A DNA stretch of 53,022 bases, filler included, from Stramenopiles sp. TOSAG23-6 (GCA_900128565.1; 3 parts of 3 records of this genome joined end to end with filler, not necessarily neighbours in it); one strand, 5' to 3'. Shown: positions 7,039 through 53,022, numbered from the whole stretch's first letter. Translations and numbers: made by a program. The notes: generated from the sequence alone by a model not told the origin.

Positions 7039-9032
7039 TTAAAAGCAAGAAAGAAAAGGAGATTTATTTTCACCTTCCTCTTTTTCAAATATTGCACGAG
7101 CATCCTGTAACTCAGAGAATGGAATGTCTCGTCCTTTGTCTTCTGCATTTCCTTCGCCTTCGCCTTTTCGCATATTTTTAATTCGCACACACTGTTTCGA
7201 CCATTCATCCGGTGCTACATATGCACAATATGTTGCACCAGCTCTATCAGCATATTTGAATGCTTTTTTCGCATCTTTCTTTGGTTGTAACATCAAATCA
7301 ACAGTTGCTCCACCAGACCGTAATTTTGCCGCAATAGAAACAGCTGCTCCAATCATCTCTTTTGACCGAGGGGCAACACAGAAATCGACAGTTCTGGGTA
7401 AACTCGGCATAAGATTATGATCTTTTAGTAACTCCATTATGACACAGTCACCAAACCCAAATCCAACACATGGAACCACTTTTTTAGATCCATAAAGAGT
7501 TAATAACTTATCATATCGGCCACCACCACAAATAGCTCTGAGCTCACCGCGTCTATCGAAACATTCCCAAACACATCCAGTATAGTATGCTAAGCCTCGA
7601 ACAACTGAAGCATCAAAGACTAGATAATCATGAAAACCGTACGATTCTGTATTATAAAAAAAAATAAAATGAAATTGTAAAAAAAATGAGTACGCCGTTT
7701 GAAATAATAATAATAATAAATACACAATGAACAATGATTGTAAATAGATGGAGCGCAATAAAATTAGACCCACATCATACCATTTAAATAGTCTGTGGGT
7801 CCACTCAACATGCGCTAACTTAATGTATGCATCACTAGTAAGTCGATTGTGTATATGTATTTCACTATTCACTGGATGCACTGAAGCCTCACGGTGAACA
7901 ATGTCATACGACACGTCAACTGTCGCAAATGTAATGCAATTGTTGATTTGTTTCAACACCAATATAGAAAAACAAAAAACTAATTACTATGAAATAATTA
8001 GTAGTATAACGTACCTGCAAGAGTAAACAAAAGCTTCAATTCTGAAAGAGCTTCATCGTCAATCATTTCTCCAACTGTTGACTCTAGTTCTTCGATCGAT
8101 TGCGCCTCGAGAGCGCAGAGCATGTCATCTGAAGTTTCAGAGGGAACACCTACTTCGATTAACATTTCCTTTACAGCATCTGCACCAATTTTATCTAACT
8201 TGTCAATGATTACACAGACAGGTGCAAACATTTCATCACTAATTCCATAACTCTTCATTAGGCTTCCAAGAAATTTTCTAGAGTTAATTTTGATGCCGAC
8301 GATATCTGGACCAACCCCAAGACCGCGAAAAAAGGCACATATTGAAGCAAGTAGTTCTAATTCTGCCATGATACTGTCATCCCCTACAATATCCATGTTC
8401 CACTGATAATGTTCGCGCTTGCGTCCCCGTTGACAGCACTCAAATCTCCAACACTGTGCGACGCAAAACCACTTAAAGGGCAAAAGATCCTTAATTTCCC
8501 CAGTGGCCGTCTCTTGACGAGCCATAACCATACGTGCTAAAGAAGGCGTCATTTCAGGACGTAAAGTAACAGCTTTCCCATCTTTATCTGTAAAAGAGTA
8601 CATCTGTTCTGTAATTTCTTCTCCTGCTTTGCGTTTGTATAGCTCCTGGTGTTCAAGCACTGGGGCGTCGTATTGTGAAAAACCAAATGCGCGTCCAACT
8701 TTAGCAAAGTGCTCAAAAAGCCAATTGCGAACACGCATATCTTGAGGAAAAAAGTCACGCGTACCACTTGGAGGATCTAAATAATATGGTTTTACTTCAG
8801 TCATTACAGCTGCAACAATTCCTTTTTCAATATTTTTGTTCGAGAGCTTTTTTTTTGTGACACCGAGGCGCGTGCGAAGTGAATCAAAGAAGATAGTTTT
8901 AGCCTCTTTTTGGGCAGGTAACACTTTCATCTGTTCAGGTGTAGGTTTGCCTTTGCCAGCGTAGTCACACATGGCGACAATTTCGGACCATTTGCGACGC
9001 TCATCAGCCGTTACGACTAATTCTGTAGTCAT
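7039..9032 (-). CDS. HARS1: Histidyl-tRNA synthetase; join(9032..8015,7646..7039)
   Basis: PPSGTRDF, LRPEMTPSLAR, QRGRKREHYQWNMDI, VRGLAYYTG, GGGRYD, GFGFGD and an anticodon-binding domain; one canonical intron. Confidence 0.95.
7647..8014 (-). other. Canonical GT-AG intron (368 nt) in HisRS
   Basis: GCAG|GTACGT..AATACAG|AATCG restores LFTLAESYGFHDYL. Confidence 0.85.
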
Positions 9033-9411: not shown

Positions 9412-11090
9412 ATGAATACGGGGCCTCCGCCCCAGCAGCCGAAAGTGCTACCAGCAGATATAGTTGTAGTCAAGGTCGAAGCTCCTCATGGTGATAAGTA
9501 CTGCTTAAGTTCGGCTTCTGGTCGAATTTATTGGCCTTATAAGACATTAAAAGATTGCATTTATGGTAAAGTCAAAGCAGCAGTTGAATTAGTTCAAAGT
9601 CCCGATGAACCCGGTGTTTTTAATATTACCAAAACGTATGTTGCTATTAAACTTATTCATAAAAAGGGGGCGAATATAGGCCTTCCCATTTCAACAAAAA
9701 TGTTTACGTCCCACGCTGAGAATCCTGTCACAGAGACGGCATATCAACAATATCTATCAACCCCTGGTTATCCATACGTGGCAAAAGTTGTTGAAGCATG
9801 TGAAAATGCTGAGGCAATGTTTGTCGTAATTGAGTACTGCAATCAGGGCGAATTGTTTGATGTGGTACAAAGTCGAGGACACCTCGACGAGAAGCTTTGT
9901 AAACGCTTGTTTATGCAAATTGTGCTTGGTGTTCATTATATTCATAGTAAAGGAATTGTACACCGTGATTTGTCTCTTGAAAATGTCATGGTACACAACG
10001 GAGATGCAAGAATTATTGATTTTGGGATGGCTACTCCACTTCCAGCTGATGGTCTTTTAGAAGGTTTCAGAGGTAAAGTATATTATATAGCGCCAGAGGT
10101 ATTTTACCATAGATATTTAGGAAAATACAAGGGTCCACCGATAGATGTATGGGCCCTCGGCCCCATGCTTCATATTATGCTCGTTGGTGCTCCACCTTGG
10201 GAAAAGGCTTGGGTACAAGATCAGAGATTTATCCGAGCTATCAATAATAAGCTACACGTCACACTGGAAGAATGGGGTGTGGAATTGTCTGAAGACTGTA
10301 TTAACTTAATGCAAGCTATCATGCAAGCTAAATTTACCCTTAAAATTAATCAAGGTAAAGAGGAACGTGTATATGTATGTTTTATTTTTTTTCAAATTCG
10401 AATTTTTTTTTTAGTAAATTTTGTACCTAACGATTTTAATTTTTGAAATATTTTTCCAAAATACATGGTTTAACTAATAGAAGGCTTTCTTTAGAAAGTA
10501 TTTTAATGCATCCATGGTTAGTACCCGTCAGAGATCTAATACCCACACATTTGCGCTGCGTACTAGAAGCCCCTCGCATATCCTCTGATAATGACAGTAC
10601 TATTGCATGTAAACCGAATATTTCTCAAAATGTTCAAAATATAAATGATGGTATGAGTAAAAATGTCGCCGCTGGTTCAGATGAAACTGACAGTGGTCCA
10701 ATCTTGCCGTTATTTAAATCACATTCTGCAGTTTTGCATGCAGTAAATACATTTGAAACTATTGAAGATCTGATCTCGCTAATCAAGCGTCTTCCCCCAC
10801 CAGTTAACCCCAGTTTCCGAAAGATGTTAATAAAATTATTGGCTAATCATGATATGAGTGTTGTGACAACAAGAGGGAGAGTTCGACAGCTTTTGATTGT
10901 CATTGTTGGTTGTTTGGCAGACATACAAATATATAAAGGTTGGCTAGAGCAGCGAAAAGTAGAAGGTGCTCTTAGTCAGAATCAAAATACTGGCGAAGAT
11001 CTTTTTACTGGTGTTGACGAATCAGATAGAGTATTAATGCTTCAACGGTGGATTTCGTGGCTTACTCGCCGGCAAAACATTTCCACTTGA
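9412..11090 (+). CDS. CAMK-like Ser/Thr kinase; join(9412..10374,10467..11090)
   Basis: VAIK, HRDLSLEN, DFG, YIAPE, DVWALG; subdomain XI RRLSLESILMHPW is recovered after removing 10375..10466. Confidence 0.9.
10375..10466 (+). mobile_element. Non-canonical repeated intron (GT..AT, 92 nt, phase 0)
   Basis: TAT|GTATGT..TTGTACCTAAC..AAAATACAT|GGT; restores the kinase C-lobe frame. Confidence 0.85.
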
Positions 11091-14324: not shown

Positions 14325-17056
14325 ATGCCAAGGCGAGCTACTAGCATGAAGATTTATGGTCGGCGTCGACGAAAAAAGCAACAGCCTTTAAACAAGTATG
14401 TAACTACGTTAACTGCGTGTGACGCTTTTGACTCTCTGACACCTTCGCCAGCACCACCACCACTTAAACGAAGCCCCCTCTCCAGAGATCTTTCATCAAG
14501 GAAGAGAACTCCCGTCGTCATTCGAGATGATTCACTTGTCCCTGGACAATTGTTGTCTCCAAATTCCTCATTCCCAGTTTATATGGATAATAATATTGCA
14601 ACCCCGCAAACCCCCTCAAATAAACAGTTTCGGTACCCCAAAATGGCACCTGAGCGAAATCCCTTCGCACCGGAATTAAAATATTCACAACCGCTTCGCG
14701 ATCTGGGCCAACAGCCTCATCAATTAAGCAATAAGCCCATGTTAAACACTATGGATATGATTAATGTACTACGAAAAAATGGCGCACATTTATCGCGGAA
14801 ATACAAAGTTACCCCCAACAAGCTACATTCTCAACCTAGCAGTCAAGGATATACACAAGGAAACACGAAATCAATGAAAGGATATACACAAGGAAACAAA
14901 CGAAAGAGTCCGTTCACGACAAATAATTCTTTTCGACAAACTCGAAGTACTACAAACAAACGAAAGAGTCCGTTCACGTCTAACCCTAACCCTAATTCTT
15001 TTCGACAAACTCGAAGTACTACAAGACGACGACTTGAGAAATCTGCAGAGAATAATAATATGATGTCTAGTATACTACTCACACCTACGAAAAACACGAA
15101 AAAGAGTCGTTTGGAGATTCCCATAATCAATAAAAAAGTAACGCAAAACATTCAAAACATCCAAAACATCCAAAAAATGAAAATCGTCAAGAATTCAGTG
15201 AATTCAGACGATCCAATTCAAAATGATATCGAACAAATTATTATACCATCATCTATTGGTTCTATTGATCCAATTGATTCATCAATAATACAATCATCTA
15301 TTGGTTCTATTGATCCAATTGATTCATCATTGGTTGATTCGTCTTCGTTCTCAAGTAATCAAAAAAAACAAAAAAAAACATTACATTCAAAACCAGTTAG
15401 CTCCAGCACAACTCGGAGAACAAAAACAACTAAAACAACAAAAACAACAAAAACAACTAAAACAACTAAAACAACTAAAACAACAGTACAATCAAAAAAA
15501 AGAATCACAAAAAAAAAAAAGATTGAGTTTAATTCAAATGTGAGAAGAAATCATTTCAAAAAATGTAAATATCAATGGTCAGTTACAAAATGTCTTGATG
15601 GTTCAACGAAAGTTTTTGATTGGAACAACATGGAAAATTGCAGTACAACTTCGAATACAAAAAATGAAACAATTAAAGATTGGATTGTTCATGTACGCCA
15701 TATCATTTTTTTGTCTATATTTTTTTCGTACGAAATTTTGTACCTAATAACAAACATCTTGTAATATTTTTTCACAATACATGTACGCTATATCATTTCA
15801 TTTCAAATTGTTTTTTTTCCTGTGCATAATTCAATGTTTTGTACTTGAATTTTATACTTAATGAATTTCGAATTTGACATGTTTTTTTTCTATACAGAGA
15901 GGATTGTCGCCAGCTTTATCTACTCTATGGAATGCTCAACAAATGTATGTTTTATTTTATTTTATTTTTTTTTTCCGGTAAAAAAAAAATCGATTTTGGT
16001 TTTTATAAAAATTTTGTACCTAACAATTTTTTTTTAGATTTTTGAAATATTTTTCCAAAATACATTTTTGTGAAACTCAAAGATAAACTTAATACAAATC
16101 CAAGGTATAAAAGCATCAGGTCAAAAACTACCGGTGATGAAAAAAGGTGTGAAAAACGCATTCAACAATTGAAAGCTTTGAGAGTGAATATTGATCAATC
16201 ATGGCTCTATGGAGTGTTTAAGCTGGAAGGAATTTCAAAGATACAAAAAGAAGAAGAGATAGCTATAAAAACTTTGGAGTGTCCAGTGGAATTGCGCTCA
16301 GCATCGATCTGTTCATATGGTGGTGCATCCTCTTCAATACTATCTGAAAATTCACGTGTATTCTATATAAATCATATACAGAAACAAGCACAATATTATA
16401 AACGACAACATCAACAAAAACTGAATGTAATGTACAATAATACCGACATGACCAAAAAACCAAAGCAGCAGCAAAAACATGAAAATAAATCGAATGTTGG
16501 TTTGAGTAAGGAAATGAATCAAAGACAACAAATAAGAATAGAAAATGACTTTCTTGAAAAGAATTCGAATAAAAATGTTTATTCAAATACGCAAAACACC
16601 AATAAAAAGTCATTTTTTGATACTCCAGATCAAAATGAAAGCAAAACCAAATCAAATAGTTTTTTTTCTTCGTCACCTGTATTAGTCAATACAACACCAA
16701 TCGTAACATCAAGCTCAAATATAGAATCGAAAGAAATGATTGCAGATAAAAGAGATGAAAACCAAATCGTGCAATTACCTCTCAATGTATGTTTTATTTT
16801 TTTTCAAATTCGAATTTTGTTTTGTACGAAATTTTGTACCTAACAAATTTTATTTTTTTTTTTTAAATATTTTTCCAAAATACATGCCAATGTAAATTAT
16901 GCTAGTATTATAGAAAAGCAAAAAGTAAAAAACCAAAAAAGTGAAAATAAAATTATAGAAAAAACAATTGAAGAACTTAATTCGCCAATCAATGATCAAA
17001 ACCAAACGAATTCGGAAAGTTATAGTTATGGACATGATCCTATACGCTCAAGCACC

Positions 17057-17131: not shown

Positions 17132-17650
17132 ACAGTATATTTGGAAGAGAAGAAGCAATCTTTGAAAACATTTAGAAAAAGAATGAAAAAGGTTTCAAAT
17201 GGTATAGATGAATTAGATCAGAAAGATATACAAATTTCACTACTATCTCACCGTCCTCGTATGATTGATAGCTCAACACAAATAATTACCAGAAAAAAAT
17301 CAGCAAAGACTCAAACTTGTGTAAAAACAGTCAATGCATCATCAAATACTAGTATAAAGAGCAATGCAGTAATGACTCAAACTTTTGTAGATACAGTCGA
17401 TACATCATCGAATACAATGACAAAGAGGAATTCTTCTGTGTATACGAATACAGATGTACGTTTTCAATTTCGAATTTCGATTTTTTTTTTGGTACGAAAT
17501 TTTGTACCTAACAATTGTTTTTTTGAAAATATTTTCCAAAAATACATGCTATACAACATGTCGATCAAAGTTGTAATACAACTCCTGTAATAAAACCTAT
17601 TATGAAATGTAACTCGACATGCACTGAACAAAAACAGTTTAAATGTGTAT
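14325..17650 (+). CDS. Uncharacterised low-complexity protein, 3' partial; exons 14325..15692, 15898..15944, 16066..16786, 16886..17455, 17548..17650
   Basis: Frame is continuous across all junctions when the repeated introns are removed; TTK repeats and poly-Asp; runs into the contig gap. Confidence 0.65.
15693..15782 (+). mobile_element. Non-canonical repeated intron (GT..AT, 90 nt) abutting a GT-AG intron
   Basis: CAT|GTACGC..TTCGTACGAAATTTTGTACCTAAT..CACAATACAT|GTACGC. Confidence 0.75.
15783..15897 (+). other. GT-AG intron (115 nt) related to the repeated family
   Basis: GTACGCTATATCATTT..TTTTGTACTT..TATACAG|AGA; frame continues RGLSPALSTLW. Confidence 0.7.
15945..16065 (+). mobile_element. 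Non-canonical repeated intron (GT..AT, 121 nt, phase 2)
   Basis: CAAAT|GTATGT..GTACCTAAC..AAAATACAT|TTTTGTG gives QQIFVKLKD. Confidence 0.8.
16787..16885 (+). mobile_element. Non-canonical repeated intron (GT..AT, 99 nt, phase 0)
   Basis: AAT|GTATGT..GTACCTAAC..AAAATACAT|GCC; contains an in-frame stop, so it must be removed. Confidence 0.85.
17057..17131 (+). repeat. (GAT)n microsatellite encoding poly-Asp
   Basis: About 25 GAT units with one GCT interruption. Confidence 0.9.
17456..17547 (+). mobile_element. Non-canonical repeated intron (GT..AT, 92 nt, phase 0)
   Basis: GAT|GTACGT..GTACCTAAC..AAAATACAT|GCT. Confidence 0.8.
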
Positions 17651-17930: not shown

Positions 17931-19587
17931 CTTCCCATGATTCTGCTGAAAGAATTCCTCTTAAAGAAAGGAAGAACACAATCACTAGTTTTTCTCGTAG
18001 TGCTGCTGGTTCAACTGGTTTTTTAAATGCAAAGAACATAAATCCAAGTTTTTCTCGTAGTGCTGCTGGTTCTCCACCTCGCATTCGTCGAAATATGAAG
18101 AATACATCACTTCACGAAATTAGGGGACATGAGATTAAAACTAAAAGATCAAACAAAACATCTGGGTCGATGAGAATACGGCAGAGATTGACAAGGCAGA
18201 ATGTTCATCATCTTGGTACAGGTCCACGTTACCGCAGTATGTTAATGTACGTTTTCATCATGAATTTCAAATTTATTTATTTTTTTTGTATGAAAATGTC
18301 GTACCTAACGATTTTTTTTATCCACAAAAAAAAACAATATTTTTCACAATTTATTAACCCTGGTCGCAGTCTTGTATTTGGTGTTGGTGATCGTATATTT
18401 ATACTAGCGCAAAATGTAAGACAGCGAAATGATGTACTTGAATGGTGCACTGAAATAGAAGAAAGTGTTAGACGAATGTACGTTTCATATGAATTTCTAA
18501 TTTAAGTTTTTTTTTTCATACGAAATTTCGTACCTAACGATTTTAATGTTTGAAATATTTTTTCATAATCCATGATTTTGGTATCATTAAACATGTTGGG
18601 AATCCTGCGCTCATTGTCAAATCTATTAATGAAAAGAATATAAAAGAAGCGACTAAGAATATCTTTGGGACGGACCAGGTCACACTTTTACGAATAGTGG
18701 TAAAAACACTAATTGGTGGAAGCTCTGGTTATGTCATTGACCCACGAGAGTACTTAGGAGCACCAGAAACTGATAGTTTTTGTGCATTTTCTATTCCTAT
18801 GCCAAACACAGTAGCGTTTAAGGTCCAGGAAGCAACCAAACCACAGCGTCAACGGTTATATACTCCATACACAAAGACGATTAATAAACGTATGGAGACA
18901 AGTGAAGGTCATATGACTAGTTGGACCAACAAGCTTCAATTCCATGCATATTATTCATCCCTTCCAGGTACAGATCGATTTGATGTGTATTGGAAGAGAG
19001 ATGGAGCGACACGTAATTATTTCAAGTGTGCTCGTAAGGCCGCAGATCCTTGGGGTTGGTTCTTTATGTATTCATTTTATGCATATCCACTGGTTCGTAT
19101 TGACGTGTATAAATCACTGAAAACAGAACATACGTACTATTTTAGTGGTAGTGAAAAGATGACAAATATACCACCACCTGACCCTGAAGAATTTGAACAT
19201 GAGTTTTCATTCTATGCTCTACAATATCAAATGACTGGAACTATCAACTTTAACTGCATGCATACCGACAAAAGACAAGTTGGTGATGATCCGGGTATTA
19301 CACGATCACTTAGATCGCGATGCAGTTCCGAAGCACCACATTCCATATGGGAACATAACTGCCAATTTTATGCTTTTGATACACCAATACGGGGCACTAA
19401 TCGATTACAAATTCAGATATCTATTGATGACCCAGTAAGATATCGTATTACGCCAGAATTTATGATAAAAGGTCCATGGAGACATCTCAATACAGTTTAT
19501 GTTTTAGGAATTGTATCCCCAGATGCTGTAAAGTTTGCCCATGGTGCACCAGATCCTGGAAAAGCTTTGTCAGCACTGGTTTCATAG
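17931..19587 (+). CDS. 3' part of a gene with a BK/Slo K+-channel-like tail motif and an unknown C-terminal region; exons 17931..18246, 18355..18477, 18570..19587
   Basis: Spliced RYRSMLINPGRSLVFGVGDRIFILAQ resembles the RCK2 end of Slo channels (RYVITNP....L...D.IF.L). The family call rests on this one motif. Confidence 0.5.
18247..18354 (+). mobile_element. Non-canonical repeated intron (GT..TTTAT, 108 nt, phase 2, stop-free in frame)
   Basis: TTAAT|GTACGT..GTACCTAAC..CACAATTTAT|TAAC gives MLINPG. Confidence 0.75.
18478..18569 (+). mobile_element. Non-canonical repeated intron (GT..TAAT, 92 nt, phase 2)
   Basis: CGAAT|GTACGT..GTACCTAAC..TTCATAAT|CCATGAT joins to ORF 18550 (RIHDFG); the 3' end was chosen by frame. 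Confidence 0.65.
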
Positions 19588-27065: not shown

Positions 27066-27071
27066 TTCAAA

Positions 27072-33501: not shown

Positions 33502-33628
33502 AATGACCAACAAACATCTTTTAATTATTTTGACTCCTTCCATTTTTTATAAATAAAGGTTTTCGTAAAACAAAAAAACATATTATTACTTTATATCAAG
33601 AGCAGAAATATTTTGTTTGCTTTTTCAA

Positions 33629-35039: not shown

Positions 35040-35406
35040 ATTCTAAACACCAAACAAAAATACAAGCATTACTATTTCAACGTTCCCTAGGAAGTGTTCG
35101 TATAGTATTTTCGTATCCAGGAAGTGGTAGGCTTACGTAGATGCAAAGATAGAATCTGCTTATGATTTCTCACGAGGGATAGTATTCAATCAAGAATGAT
35201 TTAATCTTGTCCTTTCAGATTGCGATTTTTATATATTAAATTAATAATAATTCGTTGATGCTGATGATGCCACCAACTTTGTGGAAATCCCGAATCGTTT
35301 ACGTTACGTTTTTTAGACGTGTCAAATTTCGTCTTATCGATCGATACTACTTATGTAAAATAGTATAGAACATTGTACCTTGAAATTATAATGCATCAAT
35401 GAAGTT

Positions 35407-35506
35407 NNNNNNNNNNNNNNNNNNNNNNNNNNNNNNNNNNNNNNNNNNNNTTAATTAATTAANNNNNNNNNNNNNNNNNNNNNNNNNNNNNNNNNNNNNN
35501 NNNNNN
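35407..35506. other. Artificial contig spacer
   Basis: 44 N + TTAATTAATTAA + 44 N. Confidence 0.95.
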
Positions 35507-35640
35507 TATACTAAAATATATTTACATTTATTACAAAAAACTACAGATTAAAAAATATTGTTTTCGATCTTTGACCTTCAACATTATTTTTATACGCAGA
35601 TATATATATACTAAAATATATTTACATTTATTACAAAAAA

Positions 35641-38600
35641 CTACAGATTAAAAAATATTGTTTTCGATCTTTGACCTTCAACATTATTTTTATACGCAGA
35701 TATATATATACCATACTTTCTAAATTTTTCTAGTCCTTCCAAAAGATACTTATGAAAATTAGTAGGACTGAAAACAACTGCATGATCGATCCTCCACCGT
35801 TTAGTGTCAACTTCCTCTATAAATATTGCAAATTTTGTTACAAATTGTGCTGACATTTTAAATGTTACCACTGCACCTAATTTTGAAACGTGCACAACTA
35901 CATTATTTGGTTTTGTAGAATGAAATTTCGTATCTAATGAATTTCGAATTTGTTGGGTGTCAACGTCTGACACTACTTCTTTGGCATTGTCCTTACGTTT
36001 GGTTTTATCATTGGTTTCATATCTATTTTTAAGCACCTGACCTACCCATGTAATATTCAATAAGGAAAAATCACTACGACCATATATATTTGAAGCAGTT
36101 ACACGAAAAGCGTATCTACGACCGAGTTGTAATCCATTGACCACAAGTGGGCTATTGAGTCCCTCGGATGCAACAACATCAGATATAAACACAGTATACA
36201 TGGTAATGGGGGCACTTCCATTTGATATCGGCTGACTAAATGAGACAATACCTCGATCTCCTTCACATTTTACGAATACATCTGTAGGAGGCAATGGAAC
36301 TGAAGAAACAAAAATATTCTTACTATTGGACATCTCACTTCCACCTGCAGAATTATACGCGCGAAGAGATACAGAATACATTTCATCAAGCAAAAGACCT
36401 AACTTTTCAATTTTATATGAAAGATCATTTGGGGCTGTACTTTTTGTAACTATCTCTACAAATGAAACATCCTCTTTTTTTTTTCTTATTATTATTGATA
36501 AAACGTATTTAGTTACAGCATCCCCACCATCATTAGTTGAAGGCTCAAAAAATACGACGATGCCAGATTGTGATTTAATTTGTTTGACACTCAAAATATT
36601 TGGTGCAAGAGGGACACCAAAAGGAATATACAATGATACTACATCACTTGATGGACCATGTCCAACAGAGTTGAAGGACTGCACAGTAAATAGACATCTA
36701 ACATCTCGAGGAAAATTTGGTATATCAATAATTGATGTCAAAGAAGTCTCCAGTGTTTTGGTAATTGTTACAGTGTTTTCTTCAACATAAGTGTGACCTT
36801 TATTTCGAAGGCGATCACATTTCCAATGTATAATATGTCCTAATAATTCTGTACTTGAAGATGGTTTTGGTACAATTAAATTTGTCTTGTGAAAAATTTG
36901 GACTCGCACGGTCGCGGGATCTTTTGAATCCGTCAAAAAAGAGGCTTCTACTTTATGTGCCTTCAATGGTAACTTTGTGTCAGACTTTGTGCATATACCT
37001 GATACTGTATTTTTATCATACAACCAGGATCCATGAGTTGATTTACCTTCATTTATTGCTGTTGCTTTAGACCACATTGCACATTTATTTGACATGCCAG
37101 GAATTATATATTCACCATTAAAATAAGTATAAACATAACACCAGTGGTACATATTACATAGCTTTGCACACAGTACACTTGATGAAGAATTTTGCCATTT
37201 ACCAATTGTCATTTCATCTTTAGCGTTTGCATTGAAATACATAACCTTTGAACAATTATCAGGCAATTCAGAATCTCGAGCATATTGACAATGACCAACA
37301 GTAGCACCATCCTGGGGAAACCATGAGTTTGAATCAAATCTATTGTGTGAAGTAGCTTCAACATCATCCCAAATAACACAACGCTGTTTCCATATATCAG
37401 CAATTTTTGAATGGCCGTTACCATGAAACGTAAACATTCGACATTGATTTTCTTTACAGTATTTGATACAGCCAGTAATGGATACATATTTTGGAAACAT
37501 AACTGGGTCTAATTTCTTAAAAAGTACAGCACTATGATTAAATGTGTATGTATTTTGGAAAAATATTTGAAAAAAACCCGTTAGGTACAAAATTTCGTAC
37601 GAAAAAACATCGAATTTGAAAAAAAATAAAACATACATGAACATTTTGGTGTTGCAGGTATAGCTTTAATTTGTCTAGAATGGATACTTCGGCCTACTTC
37701 ATTAATACTCGAGACATATACGAAATATTCTTTATCGTCTTGTAGATTTTCTATTATCCAGCCTTCATTTACTGGAGGAGCATTAGGTACATGAATATGC
37801 TGCATTTCACCAGATATCCCAAATTGATAAGATATTTGATACTTTTTAATCGGATTGCCACCATTGTGTAGAGGTGGTTCAAAGAAAACGTACAATATAT
37901 TAGATCCAGGAATTACTTTTACATTCATGGGTGCACCAGGTAGCGCAGGAGGTCTCTTTGATATTGATCGTTTTCCTCGTCCTAATTGATTTGATGCATC
38001 AATAAAGAATATATATGATTTATTGACTAATAATTCTTCTATATCAACTGGACTGCCAATTGTTTTTATTGTTTTTACATCAGTCTCACCCCGAGTCCAA
38101 AAGGTCACAAAATATTCTATAATAGGATAGCCACCATTGTATTCCGGTGGTTCAAAATAAACAGTAGTTTTCCCATACCCTGGTTTACTTCTTTGAATTG
38201 GAGTAATATGAGTAATATTTGGTTGACTCGGTGTTGAATATGTTGTCTTTACAAAAACATTATGAGATAGTTTACTCATACCAATGATATTAATAGCTCG
38301 TATAGTGATCTCATATATTGTGTTATTATCTAAATTTTTTATTAATACAGAATGATGTAAAGGATCAGCCGCTGTCGTTGAATTTGCTTTATTTTCTATA
38401 TTTGCTACATTTAAATGATTTATAATAGTATTTCTCTCTTTTGTATTCGTATAAATTATATAAGATGTGACTTCTCGGAGACCAAATGATTTTGGAACAT
38501 CGAAAAAAATCTTTACACTGTTTGATCGTGGTATTGCACGAAGATTTCGTGGAGGTGATAAATTGTGAAAATATATATACATTTGTTTTCGTTTTAAAAA

Positions 38601-41150
38601 CAATCATTAAAAATGAATAAAAAGAAATGTAGGTGCAACATTCATTTTTTGTACAAACATACATGGTACTGTGGGTTTACGAAATGGATTTAAGTATAAA
38701 TTCCGACGTCTTCCTTTTTTGTTTATCTGAAATTCAACTTGTCGAATCCATACATTAAATCCTTCTCCAGAAACGAAAATACTGCTGTCATCATGTATTG
38801 TGAAAAAAAAATATAAAATTTGTTAGGTACAAAATTTTTATAAAAAAAAAAAATAAATTCGAAATTGAAAAAAAAATAACATACACCTGTATCAATACTT
38901 TTTCCAGAATCTGCATATATTATTTGTTTTGTTCGTACGGTCACACCATCTTTATCTGGGATGCCTTCATCTAAATATACGACAAGTGACTTTGATTTAT
39001 GGGAATAAATACAACCAGCAGATTCCAATGTATTTTGGAAAAATATTTCAAAAAAATATCGTTAGGTACAAAATTTACTATAAAAAAAAACTCATACAAA
39101 AAAAAAATAATACATACATGAGTCGACACTTCGATGATGAGATGCAAATTGATCCATTGGTGAATCTTCCAGTTCATCAAAACAGCTACTTTCAAGCATC
39201 GTGCGATTAAATATCCCGAAATAATTTCCATTTGTAGAAGAAAACATTATTTGATTATATGGAACATGATCAAATCGACGACTAAAACTATTTTGAGATT
39301 CAGGGTCGTCTTCAAAATCACCATGTATTGTAGAAAAAAATATTTTTAAAAAATTCGTTAAGTACAAAATTTCGTACGAAAAAAAAAATAAATTCATTAT
39401 GAAAACGTACATACTCTTCAGAACCATTGAGTGCATCAGATGCAATATGCCACTTTGGATATGCTGGGGAAAAGTGCAAATACAATGGTAATTCTGATGG
39501 AGAATACAAAGTATCCATTAGTGTCATCGTAGACATTTTTGATACATTATTGTTTTGTATTTTACGTAATATCATACCATTCTCAATGCCTTCATTTTCA
39601 GCTTTGGAGTTTTCAATTACAGACGTTACTACGAAGCCATATGAATCCGTGGATTCAATAGTACATCCTATATCAAGGATACCGGTAGGTGAATTTATTT
39701 CAACTTCAATGAAACTAGTACTAGAAAAACGAAACGACGTGTCATTATTATNATCCTTATTATTATTATCAAACATATCAAAATCTGTTAAATGTGCGCG
39801 CCGGACAAGAGCCCATCCACCACCATCTAGTGTACCATCAGCTGCACTACCCGTTAAAGGAATCGTTGGAGTAGTAAAATCCATAATAAAATACGGTTTG
39901 GCACATTCTAGGTAACTAATGTCCTGACATGGTTTTGGAATCTTTGTTGAACAAATGAGTAATGCAAAATCGGAATGCAAAGCTCCTCCTTCCAGCCCAT
40001 TGACAGAGATTTCCCCCCACGTTCCTGGAGTAGCAACATTTAACTGATCAACATCAATTGAAGAAGAATGGCATAATCGATCACTATGTTTTGGTTTGCC
40101 TTCAATAGCATAAATAACAGTTGGTAATGGAAATTGTGGATCACTATCAGGTACGAAATACTTGAAAACAACAAATGAACTTCTTATTCTCTTCACGCGA
40201 ACACCACGTACATTTTGTGGTGGTCTTTCCACTTTACCAGAAAGACAAAAATTGGGACGTTTACAACTTAAATCAACCGGGTCAGGAAAATCATCCCAAA
40301 CACGATTTGCATTAATTCTTTTTTTTACCCGAATTCCCGACATGGACATTATTTCCCAGCAATATTGCCATCCTTCAAATGCACCATCTTGCCAATAAAA
40401 TTTGCGGATTAAAATATTTTCAAAACCAAATGAAGCTTTGCCTTCTCTTTTACGCTGTTCTTGCTCTTCACGAAAAAAACTATTTTCTTCGTTTTTTGCA
40501 CGCAAATCTTCTTCTTTAGTAAATTTTCTACTCGATGTAGTTTGACTCTCATCATACCGAGCTCTCTTTTCAGGATCCTTTAAGATTTCATACGCTTCAG
40601 AGATTTTAATGAACATTTCATTTGCATATTCTTTATCTTCACCTGGTTTGATTTTATCAGGATGCCATCGTAGCGCAAGAGTTTTATACGCTTTTTTGAT
40701 TTCTTTTAATGTTGCCGTTTTCTCTACCCCAAGTATTATATACGCATCATCATCATCATCATCCATTTTATCCATTTTTTCCTTTGTGACTTCGACATCT
40801 TCTTCAATACGCTGAAGGAATATTTGTAAATATTTTGGACCTCCTTCTGTCATCCAACCTAATAATTGTTTGGCATTGATACAATCATATTTTGCCTTTT
40901 CCCAGAAATTCATTTGTAAATAAATTTGTGCACGAATTAGGTGTAATTCTGCACATATTTCACGATTATCCTGATCAACATTTACGAGAGCTCCACTTCC
41001 AAGAAAAATGTGAATAGCTTTACTACAATCTTCTATCCCCTCATTTGTAACTTTATTTCCATTTTTAATTATCTCGTGTCTGACTTTACAAGATTTTACT
41101 AATAAATTTTGTCTCGTAAGAAATGAAATATGATTACCTCCTAAAAGTTG
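35641..41150 (-). CDS. TPR + DnaJ + PDZ-like + FN3/PAN-like multidomain protein, 5' end unresolved; exons ~41150..39411, 39322..39118, 39027..38885, 38792..38663, 38557..37637, 37547..35641
   Basis: [23 protein letters not shown]-domain; FN3 starts [38 protein letters not shown]; all five junctions keep frame. Confidence 0.8.
37548..37636 (-). mobile_element. Non-canonical repeated intron (GT..AT, 89 nt, phase 1)
   Basis: TCAT|GTATGT..GTACCTAAC..AAAATACAT|AC gives KCSYTFNH. Confidence 0.85.
38558..38662 (-). mobile_element. Non-canonical repeated intron, diverged (GT..TTTAT, 105 nt, phase 1)
   Basis: CCAT|GTATGT..GCACCTAC..CACAATTTAT|CA gives the FN3 start TVPSPPRNL. Confidence 0.8.
38793..38884 (-). 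mobile_element. Non-canonical repeated intron (GT..AT, 92 nt, phase 0; upstream exon ends GT)
   Basis: GGT|GTATGT..GTACCTAAC..CAATACAT|GAT. Confidence 0.85.
39028..39117 (-). mobile_element. Non-canonical repeated intron (GT..AT, 90 nt, phase 1)
   Basis: TCAT|GTATGT..GTACCTAAC..AAAATACAT|TG gives VDSLESAG. Confidence 0.85.
39323..39410 (-). mobile_element. Non-canonical repeated intron (GT..AT, 88 nt, phase 0)
   Basis: TAT|GTACGT..GTACTTAAC..CAATACAT|GGT gives NGSEEYGDF. Confidence 0.85.
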
Positions 41151-41304
41151 TTTGTAATAAATGTAAATATAATTTTTTTTAAAATTTAATGTAAATATAA
41201 AATGTAATGTAAAATGCAAAATGAAGTGCGTAAAAAATAAAAAGACGGCGCAGAATCGAACTGCGTTGTATAATTTGATTATAGCAGTTCGACTAAAAAT
41301 ATTG

Positions 41305-43560
41305 CTAATCTTTTTTTTTAATTTTTTCTTCTAACCATGAAGCAAATTCCGGAAAATACATTTTGCTTGTATTTGATAAACTTATCTTTCTCTTCAAAAT
41401 GAGCTCATGATTTTTTCTAACTACATCCGATACCAATTTTCCATTTGGTCGAATTCGATCGAATACAAAGTTATATAAATCAATTATATTATCAGCATCC
41501 AAACCATTATTATAAAGTGAGTTTGATTTTTCTAACTGTGCAAATTTGTGCTGTGCGATTTTGAGCGCAGCATTCACTATATCTAATGATTTTTCATCGC
41601 AATCATTTGTATATCGGCCTACGTGTAAACCTCCCAGAGTAAGATCTGCGTGTAATAAATCGAGCCATTGACGAGAATGAGAACGCGCCTCTTGTAAAGT
41701 AATGCGATCTGAGAAAGGACGAGAATGAGAACGCGCCTCTTGTAAAGTAATGCGATCTGAGAAAGGATATAAATGATCTATTTCATTTAATGCAACGTTT
41801 TGATCTGAAAAAGGATTTACATGTCGATTCATTTGGTCAAATGCGACATTTTGTACACCCTGAATCGTCTCATTTTCCAAGTTAGGAAATTCAACATTTT
41901 CATCGTCCAAAGAAAACTCTGAAAAGTTGTTTAATATTGGTACATGCACAGATTCATTCTCACTAGCATCTGTAAACAAATTCAATATAATAGAATTTCT
42001 ATTATTATTATCATGTACTAGTGATGATGAATCAGCAGATTTCTGCAAATTAGGAAAGCTCTCAGTCTCATCGAAATTTCCACCTGTTTCTGAAGTTTCA
42101 TCAATGTCACTATAAAGGCTATTTTGATATTCTGATTCTAAAGATTCGCTCCTATCAATGTTTGGTTTCAAATCATACTCACTATTTTTACTATTGTTAT
42201 TATTGGCAGTTGACATTTCTAAATATCGATTGGACTCGTTAAAATTGCCTAGATCTTCATTGAAGTTGTTCAGATTTTCATCAACGTTTTCTACATTTTC
42301 ATTGAAATTAGAATTCGATTTAGCTTCATTAAATGTAAACGTATCAACTGTTTCACCCCAGTTTTTAATTGCATCTAGTACAACAGGTGGTCCTAATTTA
42401 TTGATCGCCGTAGTCATTTCAAATAAAGCTCTATCTAGATCTGATACAGGATTTTCTACCAAATTTTCTTGAATGTCCGCATACACACTGTAATTGTTAT
42501 CTTGTGCTTGGATATTTGATATTGTTGGATTGTTATCTTGTGCTTGGATATTTGATATTGTTGTAGACACTACTAAGGCATTGTCCAAATAGCTCGGCGC
42601 TTCAGCAAAAGTATAATTCAAATTTTTAAAGACAATTTCACCTTCATCCTGATCAGACTCTTTTTGAATTACGTTGTTATTATCATAACCGTTCGTTGAA
42701 ATATTAAATGTATTTTCATGTGGCGGCATAGAAAAAAAATTCAAAGTAGATTCACTTCTTTCAGATTTTGTAAGCTTTTGTTCTTTTGTACTACTTACAA
42801 TTGGACTCATTGGTTCTTTTGTACTATTTACAATTGGACTCATTGGTTCTTTTGTACTACTTACAATCGGACTCATTGGTTCTTTTGTACTACTTACAAT
42901 TGGAATCGACTGTCTTTCTCGCAAATCGAAATTTTGTGTAATGCTCCTAGAACTTCGTCTATTGCGTAATTTCGAATATTCAACAAAATTTTGAGAGTAT
43001 AAATTACAGAGCTGATTTGGATTATGAGACCAGTCACTAGAGTAAAGACTTTCATAACTAGGAGGTTCAGAAGCCTTATATAAATTACTTTCATAACTAG
43101 GAGGTTCAGAAGCCTTATATAAATTAGATAAAGTAGCCTTTTTAGTTGCGTCTTTTTTACTAATACCAGTAGTTGTGGACTTTTGAATTCCCTTATAGTC
43201 AGGGAGTGGCGACTTGTATGATCGAGGGGGACTCCGTGCCACGTTTTTAGATACACAGTCTTGAACACCTATATTACTTTTACTATTCTTTGTATCATTA
43301 TCGGCATTTTCTATTTGGTTTTGTTCCGAACAAGTGTCACGAAAAACTGTTGTTTCTTTGATGCTTAGTGGTTCATCATTTGGTGATTTTGAATAATTTG
43401 ATCTCGTGTTAACATTATTTGTTTGGCGTGTAATTGAATGTACATTAGTTGATAGTTCGTCAACACAGTCCAGAATAAATTGAACCGTGGTAATAGCATC
43501 TCTCTGACTCGGCGTTAACTTTTTGGCTACTTCTGATACATATTTTTCATCTTGTTTCAT
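41305..43560 (-). CDS. Uncharacterised Asn/Ser-rich protein with short tandem repeats
   Basis: 751-aa ATG ORF; repeats PIVSSTKE x4, [13 protein letters not shown] x2, [11 protein letters not shown] x2, [16 protein letters not shown] x2. Confidence 0.7.
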
Positions 43561-43936
43561 TTCAAAACCCTTTAGTGAAATATTTATATCATGTAGTTGA
43601 ACGAATTCACAGTCAAATCATTCTACGTTTATTAAATGCAGATAGGTAATAGGGAAACACAGGATAAAAAATAAAGTGTAGAGAGCTATCCATATACTAG
43701 TAAATTCGATTTTCGATTTGAAAAATTCTTGGGTTAATTTTGAAAAAAATGTATATATACTGATGTTGACATCAACAGCTATCGGATGGATATTACTATA
43801 TTAATCGTATTTTGACGCAAGTGCATCTTTCAAAATAGATTTATTTTTTTCTACTATGTAGGGTATATTGATTCAAAAAATTATGTAATTTACTATTAAT
43901 ATCAGTTTCTTTCTTAGAAACTCAATGTGTCTATAT

Positions 43937-44866: not shown

Positions 44867-45194
44867 TGACTATCCAGTATCTATTGAATATTTGTTTATG
44901 TCTGGGGGTTGGGTATATCACTTTTGTAACGGCATGTACAAAAAAGACACCCAAACACAACGACAACACGAAATAATCAATAATGAGATTCTGAGATCTC
45001 ATCAAAATTAGATCTCAGATCATTCCTTGAAATATACGATATGTATTACGAGAGATCCAATACCAGAAAAGTATTCTTGCTTTGAGCAGTCGAATCTCTA
45101 GCACCATAGATAACAATTGTGATTCTTCAAATACTATTCGCATAGATTTTTGTTCGTTGTTGGCGTTTTATTCCTGATTCGTGAATAATATCGG

Positions 45195-45769: not shown

Positions 45770-45862
45770 GTATGTTTTATTTTTTTTCAAATTCGAAATT
45801 TTTTTTCGTACGAAATTTTGTACCTAATGAGTTTTTTTTTGAAATATTTTTCCAAAATATAT
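45770..45862 (+). mobile_element. Non-canonical repeated intron at a chimeric junction (93 nt)
   Basis: GATAT|GTATGT..GTACCTAAT..AAAATATAT|TTT; phase-2 donor against phase-0 acceptor. Confidence 0.75.
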
Positions 45863-46808
45863 TTTGGTGTCAAATATCTTGCAAAAACGTATAAAGTGCA
45901 ATTGAGATGGGTGAATACAAATAGAATGCTTGCGTTTGAAATTCTTGCACATGCAATAATAGTACGTTTTTTCCCCAAAACACATTTTTTTTCTCTATTT
46001 GTTTTTTTCATAGACAATTTTGTACCTAATAAAAAAAATATTTCAAAAAGAATATTTTTCACAATAATTGCACAAGGAGAAAGTCTTACAAATAATACAG
46101 TTCCATTTGACTGGCCATTACTTCCGTGTGAATGTATGTTTTCAGGATCAAATTTAAATTCATTTTTTTTCGTACGAAATTTTGTACCTAACAAAAAACA
46201 ATTGAAAATATTTTCCCAAAATTTATGCGATCTAGTACTAAACATGTGTCGCTATATTGAACGACGGTATCTTCGAGAAATATTGATTAATGAAACCTCA
46301 GAAGATGATCTGTCNAAATCATTTAGTACTGCTAAGAGTACTTGGTGTGAACATGGATGGGTAGACATGGTTGAGAATGAAGAAGCAAAAATAGATGTAA
46401 TTTTTTATCATTCATTTATTTTTTTTTTGTTTTGTAAAAAAGATTTTGTAAAAAAGATTTTGTACCTAACGAATACAATTTGTACAACCAAAAAAAACAA
46501 TATTTTTCACAAAACATTCAAAAGAGGAAAACAGTAAAAAAATAGAAAATGATATTCGGAATACTGGATCAAACGTAGTAACAAATGCCACAATGAAATA
46601 TCGCGACAATACTAAAACAAAAAATCACTCTTTCAAACAGTATTTATCAGCAGATTCTACGGAAAGTATAGAAATGTCTTATACAATTAGTGATCAAAGA
46701 CCGAAACTGAAGTTGAGAAGACGTGCTTCTTTGAAAGAGGCAGCTATTTGTGCAGATGCAATGTTTAATAACATAGCAAAAGCTTCACAGAAATCTAAAA
46801 CAAAATAA
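45863..46808 (+). CDS. 3' part of an uncharacterised gene; exons 45863..45961, 46070..46133, 46227..46396, 46518..46808
   Basis: Continuous frame after removing three repeated introns, ending SQKSKTK*. Confidence 0.55.
45962..46069 (+). mobile_element. Atypical repeated intron copy (108 nt, boundaries uncertain)
   Basis: CAATAATA|GTACGT..GTACCTAAT..CACAATAATT|GCA; CAATAAT direct repeat near both ends. Confidence 0.55.
46134..46226 (+). mobile_element. Non-canonical repeated intron (GT..TTTAT, 93 nt, phase 1)
   Basis: GAAT|GTATGT..GTACCTAAC..CAAAATTTAT|GC. Confidence 0.75.
46397..46517 (+). mobile_element. Non-canonical repeated intron (GT..AT, 121 nt, phase 0)
   Basis: GAT|GTAATT..GTACCTAAC..CAAAACAT|TCA; joins in frame to ORF 46593. 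Confidence 0.8.
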
Positions 46809-46951
46809 ATGTATGTAATTAAGTTTTACTATTTTTGTTGTTTATTTATGAATTGACTTTTTGAATGGAATTCTGGAATAACGATGATTTCACCTGTCAT
46901 ATGAATCTAAAAGTATTTATCTACACGACAACTATGTATACGTATATTATA

Positions 46952-49322: not shown

Positions 49323-51215
49323 ATGTATACCAACATGATTCGGTTTCTAGTAAAAAGTGTGCCATCATTTCTAAAGGGCGACAAGAAATGGCTTCATATT
49401 AGGCAAGGTATACATGGCCAAACATGTAGGACTAAGAATAATAATAATGATATTGATGATGAAAATTTTCTTCTCCTACTATCCAATTCGCAGGAAACAT
49501 CTCCCGAAGTTCTTTCAGCCTTTGCAGTACGCGTGAAGGAAACAATACCGAATATTGATGCGCTATGCGCCGTGAATCTATTGAATTCAGACGAGAGTGT
49601 AATTATAGATGTTCGATCACCTTCTGAGTTTTTATCAGGTCATATATGTAACGCATTCAATGTTCCTTTATTTTCAGATAAAGAACGTGAATGCGTGGGT
49701 ACAACTTTTAAGACACGAAGTCGTGAGAGTGCTCTGACTGAAGGTATGGATATTGTTAGGCCGAAATTGTCAAAATTGAAAGAGAAGGTGGCGGAGCTTC
49801 TGGGCGGTCAGCGCAAAGTTGTTATCTACTGTTCGAGGGGTGGCATGCGATCTCACTCTTTTGCGTTTCTACTTCAACGCCGTTTGCCAAGTGCAAAAAC
49901 ATTTGTATTAACTGGTGGATACAAAAGCTTTAAAAGATGGGCGCGTGAGATGTACTGCTACGTGCCAAATAGTGCCGGATACTCCTGGGCTCGAGAAAAC
50001 ACACATGTGTTGAAAGAAGCTGACATGACCACAACTCACATGGATAGTGACATTGAAAGTGATCGTGCACTACTTCAATTTGTGAAAGGTAAAAAGCTGA
50101 AAAAGTTAATTCAATTACGCGAAGCGGTAAAGAATCCGAAATACATGGAAAGAATGAACAAAAAGAGAGAGCAAAACGTTAGAAGAAAGAACTTGAAAGG
50201 AGAAGACAACACTATGCTGCTGCAAGATGGTGCAGCTCGTCGCGCTGCAACTAATGAGAAAAGGTTAAAACAATTCGAAGGGGATTTGATTACTGAAGTA
50301 AAGAAAAATTTAGCTAAGAAAAAAAAAGAGAAACAAGAAGAAGCACTAGCTGAAGCCCAATGGCCGATAAACTATCCTTCAAAACAACCAAAAGTTATCA
50401 TTATTACAGGCAGAACTGGTAGTGGGAAAACAAGGATTATTCATGCTCTAAGAGACAAACTTGGAAAACAAGTCTTAGATTTAGAAGGAATAGCTATGCA
50501 CAATGGCTCAGCATTTGGGTCAATAGGCCATGGGAATCAGCCAACAAAACAGCAATTTATGAATAATATTGCCATTGAATGGTCGCGTTTAAATGAAAAT
50601 GAGGTTGTATTTATCGAAGATGAAGGGCCTAATATTGGCCAGATTAACTTACCGCTTGGTTTATATCGTTTAATGCAAACCGCGCCTATCATTATCAAGC
50701 TTGTTGTACCGCGTGCTTCTCGTCTCTCAATTTTAATTCAAGATTATGTATGTTTTATGTTTTTTCAAATTCAAATTCGAATATTTTTTATAGTAAATTT
50801 TGTACCTAACGATTTTTCTTTCAAATATTTTTCCAAAATACATGTAGGAGCTGCAGATATAAATCGTGATGAAATGACATCAATAGAGTATGCAAATAAC
50901 ATTAAAATCAGTAAACCATCTGCTGATTGGTTCGAGAAAATGGCTAATGCAACTCGAACATTAGAACGTAGACTTGGACGTGAGCGTTGCAATGAAATGC
51001 TTGAATTACTCGCTGGAAGTAATTTTAGAGATTTTGCAGACAAGGCTTTACATTATTATGATAGACTTTACGATAAACAAATATTCAGAGAAACTAGAAC
51101 TAGTGGCGGTAGTGTCATGGTAGACGTTGTAGTTGATCCTGCATGCACTGATATGAATATTGAAGAGGTTGCAAAAATGGTTATTAAAGAAGTTGACAAA
51201 TTAAATCAAAACTGA
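49323..51215 (+). CDS. selU: tRNA 2-selenouridine synthase (SelU/MnmH)-like; join(49323..50747,50844..51215)
   Basis: Rhodanese DVRSPSEF..GHI..NVPLF, YCSRGGMRS, GGYKSF; P-loop GRTGSGKT, LDLEGIAMHNGSAFG, FIEDEG, YYDRLY. Confidence 0.88.
   Translation: MYTNMIRFLVKSVPSFLKGDKKWLHIRQGIHGQTCRTKNNNNDIDDENFLLLLSNSQETSPEVLSAFAVRVKETIPNIDALCAVNLLNSDESVIIDVRSPSEFLSGHICNAFNVPLFSDKERECVGTTFKTRSRESALTEGMDIVRPKLSKLKEKVAELLGGQRKVVIYCSRGGMRSHSFAFLLQRRLPSAKTFVLTGGYKSFKRWAREMYCYVPNSAGYSWARENTHVLKEADMTTTHMDSDIESDRALLQFVKGKKLKKLIQLREAVKNPKYMERMNKKREQNVRRKNLKGEDNTMLLQDGAARRAATNEKRLKQFEGDLITEVKKNLAKKKKEKQEEALAEAQWPINYPSKQPKVIIITGRTGSGKTRIIHALRDKLGKQVLDLEGIAMHNGSAFGSIGHGNQPTKQQFMNNIAIEWSRLNENEVVFIEDEGPNIGQINLPLGLYRLMQTAPIIIKLVVPRASRLSILIQDYVCFMFFQIQIRIFFIVNFVPNDFSFKYFSKIHVGAADINRDEMTSIEYANNIKISKPSADWFEKMANATRTLERRLGRERCNEMLELLAGSNFRDFADKALHYYDRLYDKQIFRETRTSGGSVMVDVVVDPACTDMNIEEVAKMVIKEVDKLNQN
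50748..50843 (+). mobile_element. Non-canonical repeated intron (GT..AT, 96 nt, phase 0, stop-free in frame)
   Basis: TAT|GTATGT..GTACCTAAC..AAAATACAT|GTA. Confidence 0.8.
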
Positions 51216-52970: not shown

Positions 52971-53022
52971 ACGTATTGTGAAAAAATATTTCAAAAAAAA
53001 ATCGTTAGGTACGAAATTTCGT
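52971..53022 (-). mobile_element. 3' half of a repeated intron ending ..AATACGT
   Basis: ACGAAATTTCGTACCTAAC..CACAATACGT|GTTGCG. Confidence 0.8.

Follow-up and report, generated by a model that had tools for sequence, protein, structure and literature searches.

The AG at which introns end is among the most conserved signals of eukaryotic gene expression, and the only large-scale departures from it that we found in print are those of Fritillaria larvaceans, Amoebophrya and euglenozoans. The non-canonical introns of Fritillaria were reportedly described by Henriet et al. in 2019. Introns of the constrained budding yeast type start with GTATGT, carry a TACTAAC box and end in YAG; AT-AC introns are an established non-canonical class, and GT-AT is a rare terminus type among U12-type introns. 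Introners of Micromonas, Aureococcus, dinoflagellates, fungi and others are described with GY..AG ends, with rare 5′ GC or GA, and some introner families carry the 5′ site and borrow the 3′ site from the target (Gozashti et al., 10.1101/2022.06.06.494994). In Fritillaria, 3′ AT is the commonest intron end (44% in F. pellucida and 34% in F. borealis; Soo et al. 2026, PMC13326754), YAY makes up the last three bases and often also precedes the 5′ site, and the introns are those of the major spliceosome, with a U-rich tract; the main non-canonical classes of F. borealis begin with AG and not GT, and canonical introns account for only 5% there (PMC13326754). Introners of Amoebophrya have inverted repeats of 8-20 nucleotides (nt) that form hairpins, as well as direct repeats of 3-5 nt; no terminal dinucleotides are preferred (Farhat et al. 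2021, PMC7789003). The term GT-AT for U12-type termini occurs once in the survey preprint 10.1101/2022.09.24.509304. Here we describe a repeated family of short intervening sequences that end in AT, found in a 53,022-nt stretch of DNA (the window) that we attribute to a marine stramenopile, and focus on five of them, I1 to I5, within one long stretch of coding sequence. These five are very likely real introns of the repeated family, and the cut probably falls at GT..AT. We consider it likely that they are spliceosomal, introner-like introns of a single minus-strand gene, whose product combines DnaJ, PDZ-like, three FN3, PAN and further FN3 parts.

The gene lies wholly within the third contig of the window, and its coordinates are given in Table 1. 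Joining the six exons by script from 41330 gave 5,226 nt, or 1,741 codons, with the last codon as the only stop and with EEYGDF, DSLESAG, TGDDS, VPSPPRNL and CSYTF as junction peptides. A single stop-free open reading frame (ORF) with these peptides had been proposed by the sequence-only reading from which this work started, and its intron lengths, phases (0, 1, 0, 1, 1) and exon sizes were all reproduced on recomputation. I1 to I5 are all AT-rich, start with GTAYGT, end in AT and sum to 464 nt. None of the five ends in AG and four are free of AG throughout; I2 contains an AG at offset 25 and another at offset 38, in each case upstream of the intron's branch-like motif, so that the description of all five as lacking AG is right for their ends and literally right for four. 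The boundaries carry a one-base ambiguity at all five, as GT..AT and TG..CA give the identical mRNA.

The frame of the gene is open from 41330, and the upstream neighbouring ORF stops at 41305. Pfam searches identified the DnaJ domain of exon 1 (E 1e-22) and a weak PDZ match (E 0.0014, and 0.00025 in a second run), three fn3 stretches in exon 5 (E 1.2e-20), and in exon 6 a PAN_1 domain at amino acids (aa) 21-67 (E 2.5e-6) followed by fn3 (E 2.6e-19). The PAN domain is split by I5, with its first Cys in exon 5 and the remainder in exon 6. Exons 2, 3 and 4 searched singly against Pfam gave nothing meaningful, and exon 2 had no relative longer than 119 aa in the protein database. Exon 5 had no match at E<=1e-5 among proteins of similar length; against 1.84 billion representative proteins it matched giant FN3-repeat proteins at 25-40% identity, among which there was no junction-spanning orthologue. 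Two further observations concern the 3′ part of the gene. Residues 40-88 of exon 6 (37282-37428, minus strand), directly after the PAN-like cysteine pattern, show a weak kringle-like similarity to apolipoprotein(a) kringles in a search of solved structures (E 0.15-0.2). Two copies of a sequence of about 54 nt, TATACTAAAATATATTTACATTTATTACAAAAAACTACAGATTAAAAAATATTG, lie 100 nt apart where the third contig begins (35507-35660), and this repeat region overlaps the stop region of the gene.

The intervening stretches belong to a family that recurs across the window. Four of the five (I1, I2, I3 and I5) are clear members, with the pattern GTATGT..TTTGTACCTAAC..AATACAT and the common layout GTATGTTTTATTTTTTTTCAAATTCGA..CGTACGAAATTTTGTACCTAAC..GAAATATTTTTCCAAAATACAT; I4 is a diverged relative of about 40% identity to the family. 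I5 is 90% identical to the intron at 45770 and 87% identical to that at 10375, both in unrelated genes. The core TTTGTACCTAAC has 18 matches in the window at up to one mismatch, where 0.30 were expected, and none of 100 shuffles reached 18. All 18 lie inside ORF-bearing genes and on the gene's own strand, and the family copies are spread over at least six genes. Scanning metagenomes for TTTGTACCTAAC..AATACAK returned at least 117 loci, none of them with a family-like element (0/117); these are thus chance matches of a pattern that is too short, and they carry no information on the distribution of the family. Rfam and tRNA scans of the window found nothing.

We aligned 15 introns with 15-nt flanks and set the intron ends from the family alignment, independently of the reading frame. 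Conserved sequence extends from (A)T|GTAYGT to AAT..AT|; beyond these limits the flanks are random and unrelated. The 5′ consensus is GTATGTTTT. Over the 16 introns with usable flanking ORFs, the 5′ site is GTAYGT, in keeping with the U1-complementary pattern GTRNGT, in 15 and GTAATT in one; a TACYTAAY branch-like motif is present in all but I4 (15/16), the A of which lies 30-48 nt before the intron end; and the T content is 41-59%. The last three bases are CAT in 11, TAT in four and ATT in one, and AG, the end of a YAG site, occurs in none of the 16. AT closes the upstream exon at 14 of the 16 sites and the intron itself at 15, and the termini form a 6-nt palindrome, ATGTAT..ATACAT.

With their ends defined in this way, 14 of the 16 introns keep the frame on removal, 13 of them ending in AT and one in TT (45962-46069). 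The 16 are I1 to I5 and the eleven copies that start at 10375, 15945, 16787, 17456, 18247, 18478, 45770, 45962, 46134, 46397 and 50748; left out were the nested copy 15693-15782, two half-copies beside the spacer 17735-17834 and the copy cut by the window end. By our arithmetic, the probability of at least 14 of 16 at one third each is about 1e-5. For the five introns of the gene alone, the probability that all are in phase by chance is (1/3)^5 = 0.4%. Ten of the 14 in-phase introns would be unreadable if kept, through a length that is not a multiple of 3 or through a stop, and in only two of the 16 would a cut at the nearest AG beyond the aligned end be compatible with the frame.

Homology provides anchors for the acceptor at two loci. 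The FN3 relatives of exon 5 (150 listed) align from its residue 1 or 2 (2-300, 2-302, 1-290) and reach up to residue 304 of 306 (for example 72-304), so that coding must start within one or two codons of the AT end of I4 and end just before the donor of I5. The frame of exon 5 has a stop at 38604-38606, and AG is absent from 38603 to 38519; if exon 4 joins exon 5, the acceptor is therefore not an AG. The second anchor is a CAMKL-type kinase gene. Its exon 1 covers 24-246 of the 263 positions of the Pkinase profile, and the alignment with kinases of the MARK/AMPK type extends to ..DCINLMQA. Exon 2 begins with GLTNRRLSLESILMHPWL, in our reading the conserved motif that closes the catalytic domain, an Arg followed by Ser/Thr and then by ..HPW. 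Between the last stop (10440) and this motif, no acceptor position in phase with the GTATGT donor ends in AG.

Several observations nevertheless weigh against a uniform GT..AT cut, and they bear on four alternatives. According to the first, these are ordinary GT-AG introns with an AG further downstream or a donor further upstream, and the element lies inside a larger canonical intron. I2, I3 and I5 have in-phase AGs 39-72 nt downstream for the same donor, and in-phase AGs exist for I1 with an overlapping GTATGT donor at 39414, so that such pairs surround four of the five introns, and all five if any upstream GT is allowed; the downstream AGs at 37509, 38971, 38727 and 39288 are examples of such alternative junctions. 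As their number is about that expected by chance, ORF logic alone cannot exclude them, and equally their presence is no more than chance would supply. Each of them skips one to four nearer out-of-phase AGs, and the alternative needs either donors like GTAAAG and GTGTCG, where introns of the genome otherwise show GTAYGT, or an AG 70-100 nt from the branch motif. At I4, no in-phase AG lies within 75 nt of the aligned end for the GTATGT donor, and use of the AG at +87 would cost the first FN3 module 29 residues, a module that aligns with relatives from residue 1-2 onwards. In the kinase gene the pair 10355 (aag|GTAAAG) and 10494 (TTCTTTAG|) is also in phase. It leaves 17 residues for the 17 remaining profile positions and so finishes the kinase profile ungapped, where the AT end implies a 16-residue insert; it also loses the Arg-containing RRLSL of the domain-end motif, and its donor is unlike any other in the window. 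The interval 15693-15897, which has a family copy within AG-ended boundaries, is a further point for this alternative. Taken together, we regard hidden GT-AG introns as very unlikely.

The second alternative accepts real introns of the same family and places the cleavage elsewhere, either at AT..AC ends or at a 3′ cut that varies by one base from copy to copy. As AT stands both at the upstream exon end (14/16) and at the intron end (15/16), the cut can slide by two bases without a change in the mRNA, and AT-AC is an established class. An AT..AC reading is possible for I1, I2, I4 and I5; for I3 it is impossible because the upstream exon ends in GGT, and it is likewise excluded for 45962, where the exon ends in ATA. 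Copies with TTTAT, CCAT and ATAT ends would then end in TT, CC and AT, and an ATGTAT start is a much poorer fit to the consensus complementary to U1 than GTATGT, the 5′ site found in the host's GT-AG introns as well. A variable 3′ cut is suggested by the introns 18478-18573 and 45770-45862, which are out of phase by exactly one base. Both have a phase 2 boundary AT|GTAYGT on the 5′ side, and the frame that follows begins directly after the final T; the frames would close with a cut one base earlier or with the upstream AT taken as intronic, although sliding both ends leaves these two exceptions unrepaired. Two frames overlap openly for 67-72 nt at both, so a single assembly indel could also explain them: either the cut does not always follow the T or the assembly carries indels there. 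The frame downstream of 45770-45862 looks fixed by a cullin-like FGVKYLAKT, which is our own reading and was confirmed by no search; the cullin-like read-through ORF compared with solved structures gave nothing. In addition, 45962-46069 is in phase only with a TT end. Shifted ends remain, in our judgement, unlikely.

The third alternative holds that the elements are never removed, and that the ORFs represent distinct genes or genes in decay, or that translation runs through some copies. Four of the in-phase copies (18247, 45962, 46134 and 50748) are multiples of 3 and stay open if read through, the in-frame ATG inside I4 means that exons 5 and 6 could in principle form a separate gene for an independent FN3 protein, and the two one-base exceptions break the frame under a GT..AT rule. 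We mapped three marine metatranscriptomes (X1-X3), containing 6-8% of the sampled words, to positions 35520-53022. The gene exons were represented by only a few contigs of 150-270 nt at depth 2-6, with a mean depth of 0 to about 1.5, and among 15 joints listed of 21, at an exon depth of about 1, none skipped 88-105 nt. Family sequence reached a summed depth of about 500-1,700 in X1, which reflects many copies in the sample and is uninformative on splicing, and unspliced copies with the adjacent exon occur in the RNA libraries (loose ends of X3). Against retention, the ten in-phase copies described above would stop or shift translation, the frame match in 14 of 16 would otherwise be unexplained, the kinase and PAN domains continue across introns, and the placement of all 18 core matches in genes and in sense orientation fits elements that must be spliced. 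We therefore hold it to be very unlikely that the elements stay in the message.

The fourth alternative is removal by other means, through the minor (U12) spliceosome, through end-pairing of the euglenid nonconventional or Amoebophrya type, or through ciliate-like DNA excision. GT-AT termini are known among U12-type introns and are thus alike in their terminal dinucleotides. The 5′ site here is GTATGT and not RTATCCTT, so the 5′ TATCCTT box fails, as does the branch site close to the 3′ end: the branch-like A of TACCTAAC lies 30-48 nt from the end, where a U12 branch box TCCTTAAC would lie at about 10-26 nt. End-pairing could draw on the 6-nt palindrome and on an end-to-end stem in the minimum-energy fold of two of six introns; the six introns with 10-nt flanks fold no better than shuffles, however (z from -0.96 to +1.43), and the GTACGT variants have no compensating change at the 3′ end. 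For ciliate-like excision the ends are not TA..TA, and the related proteins carry stramenopile labels. Moreover, read with the standard code, the window contains ORFs as long as 1,820 codons, and all three stop codons apparently act as stops, which argues against a ciliate of the Paramecium/Tetrahymena type, in which TAA/TAG are reassigned. Removal along any of these routes appears very unlikely.

For the one rule proposed by the sequence-only reading, GTAYGT to a terminal AT, the balance is thus mixed; that the five are copies of one element, and that the genome has ordinary GT-AG introns as well (HisRS), goes beyond that reading. The family similarity stops exactly at GT and at AT, 14 of 16 copies are in frame and the FN3 homology anchors the end of I4, while the joints listed include no RNA junction, two copies miss by one base and in-phase downstream AGs exist for I1, I2, I3 and I5. 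From the alignment-set ends and the frames we infer that splicing after the terminal AT is the probable course of events.

The AT-ended family resembles introners in that many near-identical short introns sit in unrelated genes, bring their own splice signals and keep the frame on removal, and introners are frequent in marine protists, as which the host would also count. It differs from them in that an AG end is found in none of the 16 copies, and from the clear MITE-type and repeat-free fungal introners in its minimal end repeats (the 2-nt AT and the 6-nt palindrome). CAT or TAT ends in 15 of 16 introns and CAT or TAT at the end of the upstream exon in seven of 16 recall the YAY rule of Fritillaria. 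In contrast to that animal, the host here is a stramenopile, all 16 copies start with GT, and GTAYGT is combined with a yeast-like branch motif. Amoebophrya is similarly a marine protist with repeated non-GT-AG introns that spread like mobile elements and with short direct repeats over the borders, whereas the present family has no significant fold, a single type of end throughout and a 5′ site of canonical form. With budding yeast it shares a near-invariant GTAYGT and a TACTAAC-like box (TACYTAAY here, one pyrimidine longer), whereas introns there end in YAG. Our literature search for non-AG introns or introners in MAST-3 or other stramenopiles, which did not extend to supplementary intron tables, found none, and the available parts of three MAST papers (PMC5778133, 10.64898/2026.04.17.719054 and PMC12614181) contain no mention of non-canonical splice sites or introners.

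Ordinary GT-AG introns provide a reference for the host. The histidyl-tRNA synthetase (HisRS) gene at 7042-9110 (minus strand) has one intron, 8014..7647, of the form GTACGT..TTTTTATAATACAG. The HisRS exon has its best match in P0001, labelled 'eukprot:GSMAST32.ASY1.ANO1.1997.1', at 90% identity, where the differences are gaps of the gene model; apart from these gaps the two translations are identical (0 mismatches in the first block). At the intron, P0001 joins LLFTLA|ESYGF, as do its relatives. The next matches are stramenopile and chlorarachniophyte sequences at 49-59%, and we read the label of P0001 as pointing to a marine stramenopile of the MAST-3 kind. A larvacean origin, considered in view of the Fritillaria introns, was rejected on these matches. 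As a database coding sequence, P0001 omits 23 conserved HisRS residues (CWRFECCQRGRKREHYQWNMDIVG) and 11 more further on, omissions that resemble false introns from automatic gene modelling. The interval 15693-15897 ends in ..CTATACAG and is in phase as a whole. Both introns combine the family's own 5′ site with an AATACAG or TATACAG end, which suggests that the normal 3′ end of the host is (A/T)ATACAG and that in the family the final G is replaced by T. We count at least 19 copies of the family type in the window, compared with these two well-supported GT-AG introns. There are two or three further GT-AG candidates, at 19657, 52603 and 4356 (all minus strand). The first, at 19626-19657, would be a canonical intron of about 32 nt, GTATGTAATTACTAAT..TTATAG, just downstream of the stop of an enolase-like ORF, the end of which may thus have been set wrongly.

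A probable history of the family can be outlined. An introner-like element of about 90 nt would have entered many genes, always in the sense direction, and each copy would have brought a host-type GTAYGT, a branch-like TACYTAAY and a T-rich tract. Host-type 5′ site, branch-like box at 30-48 nt from the end (10-60 nt in major-type introns) and T-rich tract together fit the major spliceosome; U1 and U2 would recognise the canonical 5′ site and the branch site, and the chemistry of the first step would be ordinary. The second step would then place the exon junction behind the final T of YAT (..YAU|), at the position homologous to the G of CAG, which would mean that 3′ splice-site recognition in this host tolerates U for G. 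The 2-nt AT repeat, the palindrome ATGTAT/ATACAT and a 19-nt duplication at one locus are possible marks of transposition; no empty site was found. The flanking AT could represent a 2-bp target duplication or a target preference, and the consistent sense orientation would be compatible with reverse splicing, or with selection by itself. On balance we lean slightly towards an uncultured marine, MAST-3-like stramenopile in which an introner family supplies most introns, removed as GT..AT by the major spliceosome, and in which the tolerance of a non-G end arose independently of Fritillaria and was spread by an element whose master copy had lost the terminal G.

Should RNA data confirm these junctions, the splicing machinery of the host accepts an unusual intron end. 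It would be a second, unrelated lineage in which one element family carries one uniform non-AG end, and hence a clean natural experiment: with the other signals canonical, it would isolate the reading of the last intron base by the second catalytic step and by U2AF-type factors, and would show a mobile element pushing a genome towards a new splice code. Gene finders restricted to GT-AG will mis-model most genes of such genomes. The residues omitted from P0001 and the lack of any database protein longer than 119 residues that contains exon 2 suggest that functional inventories of abundant ocean grazers may be distorted.

Table 1. Features of the five-intron gene and other copies of the family in the window; aa, amino acids; read-through, translation with the intron kept.
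Feature	Coordinates	Strand	Length (nt)	Phase	Remarks
Exon 1	39411..41330	-			open frame extent, start codon not fixed; DnaJ aa 195-260, weak PDZ aa 554-616
Intron I1	39323..39410	-	88	0	GTACGT..TACTTAAC..CAATACAT; no internal AG
Exon 2	39118..39322	-	205		no family match
Intron I2	39028..39117	-	90	1	GTATGT..TACCTAAC..AAATACAT
Exon 3	38885..39027	-	143
Intron I3	38793..38884	-	92	0	GTATGT..TACCTAAC..CAATACAT; preceding exon ends GGT
Exon 4	38663..38792	-	130
Intron I4	38558..38662	-	105	1	GTATGT..CACAATTTAT; no TACYTAAY, no AG
Exon 5	37637..38557	-	921		three FN3 modules, residue 1-2 to ~304 of 306
Intron I5	37548..37636	-	89	1	GTATGT..TACCTAAC..AAATACAT
Exon 6	35641..37547	-			stop at 35641-35643; PAN domain, then FN3 modules
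Family intron, CAMKL-type kinase gene	10375..10466	+	92	0	in phase; following exon opens GLTNRRLSLESILMHPWL
Family intron	15945..16065	+	121	2	in phase via 47-nt exon after GT-AG intron
Family intron	16787..16885	+	99		in phase; read-through has stop
Family intron	17456..17547	+	92		in phase
Family relative	18247..18354	+	108	2	TTTAT end; in phase; read-through also open
Family intron, exception	18478..18573	+	96		CCAT end; frame wants one base less
Family intron, exception, cullin-like gene	45770..45862	+	93		ATAT end; frame wants one base less
Family relative	45962..46069	+	108		in phase at aligned end TT, not AT
Family intron	46134..46226	+	93	1	TTTAT end; in phase
Family relative, donor GTAATT	46397..46517	+	121	0	AACAT end; in phase
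Family intron	50748..50843	+	96	0	in phase; read-through also open
Nested family copy	15693..15897	+	205		interval with TATACAG end; first 90 nt are an AT-ended copy
Partial family copy	52971..53022	-			3′ part, cut at window end; aligned 3′ end ACGT, not ACAT

The nested locus has an unusual build. The interval 15693-15897 begins with a copy that lacks the usual 5′ part, continues with a second CATGTACGCYATATCATTT, a 19-nt direct repeat that amounts to a second 5′ splice site, and closes with the TATACAG end. Once the first 90 nt are removed, a 5′ splice site would be restored, so that splicing in two steps is possible; alternatively, 15693-15801 may be a 5′-truncated insertion with a long target duplication of 19 nt. 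The window also contains two spacers of the form N44 + TTAATTAATTAA + N44, at 17735-17834 and 35407-35506, which separate the contigs 1-17734, 17835-35406 and 35507-53022. The first spacer interrupts family introns on both sides, and the 'gene' at 14145-19587 may consist of two unrelated pieces.

Further observations were made at the neighbouring genes. In the kinase gene, the exon ends that flank the intron (10340-10500, plus strand) are alike, with ..TTTAAAAATTAATCAAGG.. before it and ..GTTTAACTAATAGAAGG.. after it, a likeness that may reflect a diverged long target duplication adding about 16 residues. HisRS and the kinase gene are divergent, and the short spacer that separates them contains a telomere-like TAGGGTTAGGGTTT at about 9185-9200. 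The cullin-like gene at 45195-46806 (plus strand) covers only positions 1-165 of 620 of the Pfam Cullin profile; after this part come four family introns and then an unrelated Lys/Ser-rich tail, and a gene on the opposite strand begins at 46952. Finally, a 770-codon ORF at 41308-43617 (minus strand) has no Pfam match and contains tandem peptide repeats, one of 10 residues present several times and others of 16 and 13 residues present twice each.

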